Position numbers and translations under genes: made by a program. The notes below the pieces were generated by a model. It did no database searches and was not told the DNA's origin. It worked only from the letters and a program-made list of their open reading frames with translations. From positions 21,762,001-21,826,000 of the forward strand of contig CM120640.1 of NCBI GenBank assembly GCA_051362555.1: a stretch of 64,000 nt of DNA. The letters run 5' to 3'. Each line of letters starts with the position of its first letter. Within the stretch, counting starts at the first letter, position 1. This DNA comes from Lingula anatina (Eukaryota; Animalia; Brachiopoda). Positions 30,913 through 33,900 of this stretch are shown one piece after another.

Positions 30913-33900
30913 TCACCTCATTTTGTAGTGTATGGTATCTGACATCTCTGAAAGTTCCCCTTTAAAATCAACATCAATTGTGAAGTCCAGATCACGCTGA
31001 AAAATAAAAAGGAACACAGTGAACATTTCTTCTCCACACTTGTGGATGGAACCTTACATAATATGAGATAACAAGCTGTAGTATGAAGTGTTTTAACGGT
31101 CAAGGTCATCAGGTAATATTTTACTTAATTAAAGATCTGAGTCACAAAAGTGACTGTAGCTTATGTATTAATCTCACTGTGTTAGAGGCTTAATCAACCC
31201 CACCCCAGCCCCCCAAAAAAGTCATTTTGCAATAAATCATTAGTTTTCCATGATAATTACATGATTGTCTTTGTTGGGTGTGACGCAGAAAGTGCCCATA
31301 ATCTCCTCTCCCTTCTTCACAGTCATGTAATCATCAAAGTAGAACACAGTCTGCTTCCAGTGAGTGTAACGAGCCTCAGGGGCTGAAATTATGATTTTTT
31401 TACAGCATTATATTTAACTATTTTAACTATAATCAGTCTTTCAAATAAAATAATAGGCTGTTATCAACATGAAGTACTTTGCAGTATTGAAGCAAGTGTT
31501 TAATACAATAAATTAAGTTAACATGCTGAAATTGACAACTTGTATCCAATAAGACTAAAAACAATCAAAATTTTCTCTAAAGGGTTTGGTTTTAAAACAC
31601 AATGAAGTCCCTTTAAAAAATTTATAGTAGCAATGTAATTTTATTCTTTTGTAAAACGAGTCTCTGGTTCAAATTAAAAAAAAAAAAAAAGCTGTTAATC
31701 ATAATCTGAAAAACAATTTTCACCTAAATCAAGTTTAAAAGATGTGGGAACCTGTTACCTGTGGAAAACCCTGTTCTCTTGTGACACTTTGTGAACTCAA
31801 TGTTGAAGAAAGTGACAAAAGCTTGGATGTAGTCATTTCTCTTGCACTGGAGATGGAAGGGAGCTTGGAACGTCAGATCTTCAGGCTGGACAGTGTAGAT
31901 GTCTACTTCCTAAAAGTACAAAGAATCGACATCGAAAAGATTGATACAAGTCACCAAAGTTTTCTTTCTATTTGGAATAAAAGATGTACAATAGTTTTCT
32001 GACTTGTCACTTGAACCAATGTTTATCAGGAACAAATCTTATGGAAAGAATTTTTTGTTGATACTAGCTCAAGCTTATGAATATTGTCCAATTTCACTTA
32101 GTCCCAAAGTGCCCAGGAAACGTGGAGTCTCTTTTGTATTTGGATTCCATAGAAATGTTGTTGTACAATCATTCTATCATTCAATTTTCAGGGGTATGGA
32201 AGGAAGGGGGGGGAGGTAGGCACAGGGATTACATTTGGTTTAGAAGGAAACATTTTTTAAAAATCCCCTACTTCCCATTTATGCTTGTGTACTTGTTGAA
32301 ATAATTCATCATGGTGAGAGGCATTGTTTTTGATTTTTTGAAAAACTATAAAACACCACAATGTCCAAATTTCTGTTCTAAAAAATATTTAGTAAGACGA
32401 AGTAGAAGACATCACCTTGCCCCATGTTCTTTATCACCACATACCTTTATAAGGCATGAATTTGTTACCACCAGCCGCCCATTGACTTTGTCAACAATGG
32501 GTTCCCTTATGGCGACCTCCTTGATGCAGCTCATGTCAAACCCATACACTGTCTCCCACCCTGAATTATAATCACAAGCGCAAATCAGAATTATGGGTAA
32601 GCCCAGTGTATCATGGGATATGCTCCCAGAGATAGGTATTGATTTGCTGCTGGTGGCCTAGTGAGATCCCCAAGTGACCAATCATGGGCAGGCTGCAATT
32701 ATTACCTTAACTAAGCAAGAATTGGTGACCACTTGTTTGGGATCCACAACATCCACTAAAGGTTCAGTAATGGCAACTTTGCGAATACAGCTCATATCAA
32801 AGCCATACACACTGTCCCACCCTAAAAATGGATGAAAACTGAATGAAACTTAAAAATAAAAAAAGCTTTCTTCCAAACAAACAAACAAAAAAGTTTATTC
32901 GTCAAAATAAATATCCCTTTGGTCTTACTATTTATAAAGTCATATGAGGGAGTATACATATGTTGTAAAATTCCAAATATTATTCCATGTATATTTCCTG
33001 TAGAGCAAATTTTGTACAAATTAAATCATTTTTCCAAACTTACAGTTGATTTTCTCATCCTTGTACTGTCTGTCTTCAATGGCACATATGTACAATGTAG
33101 CCCTGTCTGGGAATATGAGACCTCCTGGAGCCTGGAACATAGGTACAGGTAGTCATGTTATATATGAACTGGTTAACAACAGAAACTATACAATAGGAAC
33201 ACATAAGAAGTTTCCAATACATTTCCTTATTTCTCAAAAGAGACAAATTTTGATCTTTCATCAAGCAGTCCTTTCTCATTTGGGTCTGTTCATTTAAAGT
33301 TAATGTGGGTAATTTTTGGTTCCAAAAATGATTCTTGATAGATTAACATCAGGCAGAAAAGTTAACCTTTGATATCAAGTGGAGTGTACTGAAAAACAAG
33401 TGTTGTGCACCAATAAATATCAATATTTGCCCTAAAAATTGAAAACATCATTTTCTTACGAAATGGTCAAAATCTCTTTCATTGAAAAAACAAAATAATG
33501 AAGATGATTGATCTGAACAATCAAAGGTAATCTTACATCCTAGCTAGAAAACAGAAGTCAAAGTAGATCAAATTGTAGACAAAAAAATATCCAAAACTGA
33601 GAAGTTTACACAAACCAAATGCTTACCAGCCATTTGTCTCTGGCAAACAGGACTGTATTCAACATGGATTCATAGAAGAGACAGTACCCCATCCACTCAC
33701 TGATAATTATGTCCACTTTTTCAATCCCTTCTGGCAGCTGAACCTCTTCAACTTTACCCTTGACTAAGGTAATCACTGGAAAGTCAATAACAGTGATATG
33801 ACAGCTTTGAATATGACATTATTCAGAATGACCAGGCTGTGCACACTGACAGTGAAAAAAAAAATACAGTGTGCACTATAGAAAACACATTATGTAAAGA

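Follow-up and report, generated by a model that had tools for sequence, protein, structure and literature searches.

A short intron of Lingula anatina PRMT1 is predicted to pair alternately with the two mutually exclusive exons on either side of it

The PRMT1 gene of the brachiopod Lingula anatina carries two adjacent copies of its seventh exon, and the locus raises the question of how one copy, and only one, comes to be included in the messenger RNA. We analysed 64,000 nucleotides of contig CM120640.1 (positions 21,762,001 to 21,826,000; hereafter the window, whose own numbering is used throughout). The gene is read in ten steps on the minus strand, from about 35772 to 30915 (4.9 kb), and its product combines a methyltransferase core with a PRMT_C domain (Pfam PF22528, E 5e-67); the nearest solved structures are those of PRMT1 (PDB, E 1.6e-178). 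Constitutive exon 6 (33044-33131) is followed by exon 7a (32706-32821), an intron of 145 nt (32561-32705), exon 7b (32445-32560) and constitutive exon 8 (31759-31909), all on the minus strand. Both 7a and 7b are 116 nt long and in the same phase, they share 75/116 nucleotides and 26/38 amino acids, and their borders are those of the single exon found at 26 loci of other animals. Exon 7a encodes the canonical PRMT1 sequence and 7b is the divergent copy. The RefSeq isoforms X1 (XP_013417121.1) and X2 (XP_013417122.1), of 351 aa each and the sole members of their cluster, differ at 12 residues, every one of them in exon 7, and the 7b peptide matches X2 at 100%. The pair is thus already known from annotation, without a mechanism; the MetazExp database reportedly may list the event as well. 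Elsewhere in the window, a plus-strand frame at 28330-28533, which we take to resemble the end of a tetraspanin, had no Pfam match at E 0.01.

Splice joints were collected from raw RNA reads of four runs from three studies, labelled L. anatina, and were listed from 3 reads upwards (22-228 junction reads per run, 353 in total). In runs X11, X14, X17 and X16, respectively, exon 6 was joined to 7a by 86, 11, 9 and 8 reads and to 7b by 12, 8, 13 and 4, and exon 8 was joined to 7a by 119, 30, 14 and 9 reads and to 7b by 11, 2, 16 and 1. Neither a 7a-7b nor a 6-8 joint was listed among the 353 junction reads; at this threshold the mature RNA of all four runs contained 7a or 7b through these four joint types only. 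The exons are a true tandem-duplicated, either-or pair. This agrees with a preliminary description of the locus, made from the letters of the DNA, which had proposed mutual exclusion with 7a as the default; 7a was the majority form in three of the four runs. The share of 7b was 0.10, 0.20, 0.56 and 0.23 in the same order of runs, and the difference between 10% and 56% (p 6e-12) suggests regulation.

The two missing RNA forms are both frameshifted into early stops. Counted from exon 6, inclusion of 7a together with 7b stops at codon 78 and double skipping at codon 30; the stops lie 237 nt and 149 nt, respectively, short of the exon 8 donor end, with two further junctions downstream in each case, so nonsense-mediated decay could conceal both error forms in the reads. 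Choice might therefore be set entirely by splicing proteins and splice-site strength, with decay clearing the errors and any complementarity in the locus being incidental, a consequence of GC-rich patches in an AT-rich gene. We regard this as a realistic though not a probable explanation. The early stops, the listing of joints only from 3 reads in runs of this depth and the variable 7b share all fit it, and decay alone can explain the read pattern; what it has to accommodate is the base pairing described below.

The intron between the twin exons contains a 35-nt docking stretch (32695-32661) made up of two overlapping parts. Part A (32695-32675) is predicted to pair with 32493-32472 in the middle of 7b (codons D-K-V-N-G-R-L, residues 218-224) in 19 bp, arranged as 5+6+4+4, at -27.7 kcal/mol, and this is the best partner of A in the gene. 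Part A' (32683-32661) is predicted to pair with 32747-32720 in 7a (codons V-D-P-K-Q-V-V-T-N) in 22 bp, arranged as 3+6+6+7, with P 0.81-1.0 in the early transcript and with the 7a donor held in a 36-nt loop. Because A and A' have nine nucleotides in common (32683-32675) and the helices cross, the two helices compete. In folds of the growing transcript, computed as the equilibrium of each prefix without kinetics, the 7a helix was present at 88-100% in prefixes ending from 32650 to 32480 and was replaced by the 7b helix at 32470. Across four parameter sets the 7a helix reached 59-100% in each earlier prefix tested, and the two helices together accounted for 95-99% of the final ensemble, divided between them as 98:1, 34:64, 47:48 and 96:3. 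The helix pair is therefore robust to the choice of parameters and the final winner is not. A search of 30000-36500 against Rfam gave no match at E up to 1.

A third segment, element C (32595-32611), is predicted to pair with the start of 7b, from the G of its acceptor through exon nt 17, in a perfect run of 8 bp and a further 7 bp. It does so in both folds, with P 0.95-0.99 in three parameter sets and 0.58 in one, which means that the state in which 7b is switched on would be incompletely open. A switch of C to the 7a acceptor, which would make the locus a closer copy of human ATE1, had P 0.0. The 7a donor had an exposure of 0.58-0.62 in the early fold and of only 0.27-0.32 in the late one, contrary to a simple masking rule. 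Both donors also lie in a predicted hairpin with the end of their own exon, of 8 bp for 7b (32458-32440, P 0.8) and 6 bp for 7a (32718-32702, P 0.75 in the late fold), and a silent difference in a Ser codon between the copies is mirrored by the +5 base of the donor, a correspondence that may be compensatory or due to chance. Both folds also contain a predicted 9-bp hairpin in the 5' half of 7a (32808-32785), at P 0.96.

Whether such complementarity exceeds chance was assessed with dinucleotide shuffles of the intron, the tighter statistics having been devised after the helices were seen. A helix as good as the observed one within a 36-nt window arose for 7a in 11/643 shuffles, for 7b in 4/643 and for both in 0/643 (weaker of the two, 2/643); six other exons gave 17-100 per 100 shuffles, and the two flanking introns 39/100 and 56/100. 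Local antisense alignment gave 20/1000 for 7a and 25/1000 for 7b, compared with at least 367/1000 for eight other exons. Whole-duplex energies were equalled in 1/200 (7a) and 10/200 (7b) shuffles, net folding energies in 69/600 and 40/600 (both, 10; weaker of the two, 41), and the long helix in 131/1164 and 27/1164 (both, 6; weaker of the two, 69). In full folds, the switch of partner was reproduced by 1/389 shuffles as scored by window and by 8/389 when 17 nt had to change partner. Synonymous recoding of the exons matched the 7b pairing in 1/300 cases and the 7a pairing in 16/300. Depending on the statistic, p for two-partner docking ranges from below 0.005 to 0.07, the looser statistics spanning 0.005-0.07.

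Loci with a single exon 7 served as a second control. Among 19 distinct orthologs, none of the 38 pairings of the exon with its own flanks reached the Lingula values of -28.7 and -32.2 (best, -27.5). Against the model, 1 of 19 foreign exons paired with the Lingula intron better than 7a does. Two of five retested control pairs gave p 0.015-0.03, near the expectation from 38 tries, and two control loci with z of -4.4 and -3.7 on 15 shuffles fell to 6/200 and 11/200 on more shuffles. The complementarity on the 7b side is well supported as non-random, and that on the 7a side moderately so. The borderline values of the looser statistics are what incidental complementarity would give. Left unexplained by splicing proteins and decay, however, are the match of the intron to both twin exons and to none of six to eight control exons, the bases that A and A' have in common and the clustering of changes of 7b within its target.

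These results led us to propose that the docking stretch pairs alternately inside 7a or inside 7b, hiding one exon at a time and likely enforcing or biasing the choice, a model built on predicted folds to which we give an even chance. The 22-bp 7a hairpin would form first during transcription. Once transcription has exposed the G-R-L codons of 7b, the 5' end of A, being loosely paired, could act as a toehold and the 7b helix would displace 7a. This late fold would lay the intron onto 7b and bury the branch point, the acceptor and the middle of the exon; with 7b hidden, the major 7a isoform would result. YURAY is the branch-point consensus, and the sole motif of this kind in the intron (32584-32588), a candidate by motif, has its A at 32585, 25 nt upstream of the 7b acceptor and 121 nt downstream of the 7a donor. 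If the early fold were kept, the 3' half of 7a would be hidden with its donor in a small loop, and the 7b isoform would be made; that isoform would also need C to be lifted from the 7b acceptor, for which a regulated factor is the likely agent. Splicing errors would likely be cleared by nonsense-mediated decay. Docking to coding exons would also explain the exon-like GC content of the intron, which the preliminary description had correctly noted as standing above its surroundings (0.45, compared with 0.24 before 7a and 0.34 after 7b).

We next consider the sequence of 7b itself. Its 22-nt target holds 15 of the 41 nucleotide differences between the copies (p 0.0005), and the seven codons of the target hold 5 of the 12 amino acid changes (p 0.02); the differences allow A to tell 7b from 7a. 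These are the codons in which 7b departs from a near-invariant motif, D-V-V-D-P-K-Q having become D-K-V-N-G-R-L, and K219, G222, R223 and L224 occurred in none of 118 homologs (one of 119 rows was left out as misaligned). The D-P-K motif is also altered in eight single-copy exons, to G-P-K, S-S-K, S-A-K or S-A-R (L018, L020, L028, L031, L033, L036, L037, L040), so the loop varies in some lineages. By alignment, exon 7 spans the outer portion of the dimerization arm of PRMT1 together with the segment that follows. The arm is residues 204-234 of the human protein (PMC8592882), which align with 184-214 in Lingula. An AlphaFold model of X2 has the PRMT fold (pLDDT 88.8); the underlying alignment was mostly of the 7a type, and the model says little on 7b. 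We suggest, tentatively and with the doubt on the larger side, a switch that would work by co-transcriptional strand displacement, with both selectors in coding sequence of mid-exon regions, and in which 7b gave up the near-invariant motif at least partly to serve as an RNA selector of its own. Protein sequence and splice switch would then share their bases.

The same clustered changes in 7b are what a single copying event would leave, and the complementarity could then be a mutational by-product with little role in splicing, derived from exon 7 copied in inverted orientation or from template switching from the intron into 7b. The antisense similarity of the intron is colinear with both exons. 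Profiles of exon 7 built from 19 orthologs, with or without 7a and 7b, nevertheless gave no nhmmer match on the antisense intron, A and A' match their exons about 20 nt out of register, and both helices are bulged. On balance we think a by-product origin very unlikely.

The preliminary description had offered a different structural reading, in which A (there drawn as 32674-32696) pairs with an element just after the 7b donor (32409-32437) and loops out 7b, with an intronic stem (32640-32647 with 32580-32587) and its enclosed hairpins as a structure to be opened for use of 7b; on this model the stem would hide the 7b branch point. All the motifs that it named were found at their positions on the minus strand. 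The long pairing can be drawn as a duplex at -18.4 kcal/mol, with p of about 0.045 when the partner is shuffled and 0.072 when both sides are (2000 shuffles each), and looping-out of an exon has a precedent in the available text of a published account (PMC9198270). A nevertheless pairs better inside 7b (-27.7 compared with -18.4 kcal/mol), and 32409-32437 is only its eleventh best partner in the 4.9-kb gene. With free windows in the first 40-45 nt after both donors, 16/300 shuffles paired equally well, and in the 36-nt-window test of the region 39/100 shuffled introns matched equally. In its context the pairing is uphill by 8.9 kcal/mol (4.5-12 relative to the free ensemble across the four parameter sets) and makes up at most 3% of the ensemble. 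One result favoured the region: the best intron window against the 100 nt after 7b was equalled in only 1/100 shuffles; that pair (-23.1, rich in G-U), however, uses 32673-32650, which lies outside the element that had been named. In one folding window, 32438-32403 paired with 32758-32724 in the 3' half of 7a through short G-U-rich helices that would loop out 7b; with a longer folding window the partner of the 32409-32437 region lay further downstream instead.

The fold of the intron itself gave a divided result. The stem and both hairpins (32580-32647) appear when the intron is folded alone and in the transcript that reaches the 7b acceptor, just before 7b is transcribed, where the stem, which covers the only YURAY motif, has P 0.98. 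It is predicted to be transient: when the transcript has grown to include the beginning of 7b (prefixes ending at 32460 or further on), P is at most 0.01. The intron as a whole is not exceptional in self-complementarity (z = -1.27, equalled by 19/200 shuffles). The region 32380-32830 folded better than its shuffles (z = -2.73, 0/100), but did so without the proposed donor-to-donor pairing. The 7b acceptor, described as pyrimidine-poor, is mildly so, with 12 pyrimidines in 20 positions compared with 13-17 in eight other acceptors and 9 in one. The looping-out scheme also comes without a competing structure that would turn 7a off, and we consider it highly improbable. The complementarity of the intron is unusual; the interpretation given in the preliminary description was right as to kind and wrong as to the base pairs involved.

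Exclusion of one exon by the other can also be steric, as in OGDH or tropomyosin, where a distant branch point lies too close to the upstream donor, within about 50 nt in the accessible part of a published account, which describes the type for two-exon clusters (PMC7969005). URA triplets do occur at nt 4, 7 and 24 of the Lingula intron. They are followed by AG at nt 47, 55, 58 and 82 and by no U-rich tract, and the only YURAY motif lies at nt 121, with an AG-free zone of about 60 nt, so that we give steric exclusion hardly any credence. Incompatibility between U2- and U12-type sites was rejected, as the donors (GTAAT, GTATG) and acceptors (both AG) include no sites of the minor-class consensus.

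Variation within the species was examined in two DNA runs, with the variants taken from among the 40 rows listed of 220. Run X3 showed 23 differences in 31755-32863, of which 22 could be placed, two of them in the intron (32631 and 32659); X4, which is dependent on X3, showed the identical two intron differences (16/18 placed). No placed variant fell in A, A' or C in either run. Intron variation in X3 was low relative to the 101 differences in 1380 nt between the gene's upstream part and the two X3 contigs that cover it (p 0.007), with no significant deficit relative to the intron after 7b (p 0.31). The first 245 nt after 7b (32200-32444) had 3 placed differences in X3 compared with 15 in the next 290 nt, and this quiet stretch is possibly regulatory sequence or a shared haplotype. 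Since it too is quiet, low variation is not specific to the docking elements. In RNA run X17, a fixed allele at 32725 breaks one pair of the A':7a helix, that with intron position 32678, and its computed effect is equivocal (at 37 C, 3.6 kcal/mol becomes 1.9-2.3; at 25 C, 3.2 becomes 3.1-3.7). That run carries two amino acid-changing alleles in 7a, Thr to Ser at 32725 (18/19 reads) and Ser to Thr at 32812 (5/15 reads), which together with several other fixed differences suggest a diverged population.

In other animals we found exon 7 only as a single exon. None of the 26 genomic loci that could be read for this (among 80 loci from metagenome scans) showed the duplication; 10 of them also show exons 6 and 8, and several are near-duplicates, leaving 19 distinct. 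Scans of metagenomes for the 7b pattern gave no match, shared-word protein searches gave no 7b-like sequence among the 4, 21 and 120 proteins listed, and no isoform pair differing in exon 7 occurred in ten lophotrochozoan clusters. The duplication looks limited to the Lingula lineage among the sequences seen, which include no other brachiopod genome. PRMT1 has probably acquired exon pairs elsewhere. In mussels, isoforms X1 and X2 (Mytilus galloprovincialis P0145/P0146, M. trossulus P0147/P0058; 357 aa) differ only at five residues, which fall in the exon 6 span, and a model from M. edulis (P0038) has both versions of exon 6 in tandem, pointing to a likely separate either-or pair. Isoforms X1 and X2 of the ribbon worm Lineus longissimus (P0093/P0162; 356 aa) differ at ten residues in the exon 9 span, which, as judged from the protein sequences, probably marks a third duplication of independent origin.

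If alternate docking is correct, the Lingula locus would be among the smallest structure-based either-or splice switches, at about 380 nt in all, and an example outside insects and vertebrates with its selectors within coding exons. It would tune the main arginine methyltransferase, and RNA folding as a driver of amino acid change in a conserved enzyme would become testable. If it is wrong, the remainder is an annotated, lineage-limited exon pair. A search of open full-text papers found none on this exon pair, nor one describing a docking site whose targets lie in the middle of both exons.

Among characterized systems, a study of Dscam exon 17 reportedly combines steric hindrance with structure. 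In chicken beta-tropomyosin (the 6B hairpin) and in FGFR2, structure affects one exon of an alternative pair, as it would in Lingula; each is a single, one-sided structure, with no alternating pairing with both exons in the accessible text (PMC9198270). The docking systems of the Dscam1, 14-3-3 and Mhc clusters and the bidirectional design of srp likewise allow one pairing at a time, with choice by pairing strength. As far as the available portions of these reports go, the docking sites of Dscam1, 14-3-3 and Mhc flank the cluster, their selectors are intronic, and pairing activates an exon through proximity, whereas pairing in Lingula would hide one (PMC6071210, PMC4691838). Selectors of this class resemble each other and sit in introns or at splice sites, which is not what we found: both main Lingula targets lie in mid-exon, 15/22 nt differ over the 7b target, and the flanking introns do not match. 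The "balancer" pairings of Dscam1 exon 6 act as a modifier in a large cluster, and in the accessible account of them they are no switch between two exons each targeted in its middle (PMC8791459).

The closest likeness is to exons 7a and 7b of human ATE1, where the pairings R1-R3 and R3-R4 compete and the exon ratio is tied to helix stability and the speed of transcription (PMC7797038). Both loci have two homologous exons and one docking element between them, with an upstream and a downstream partner. In the available text on ATE1, R1 and R4 are alike and each lies directly upstream of its exon, overlapping the 3' splice site, whereas the Lingula targets are in the middle of coding exons; the ATE1 exons are 129 nt long and cause no frameshift, whereas those of Lingula are 116 nt. 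Mutation experiments have proven the ATE1 pairings, which vertebrates conserve, whereas the Lingula pairings are predicted. Unlike those of ATE1 as described there, the Lingula targets are where the two copies diverge most, and would be bound by overlapping but non-identical docking bases.
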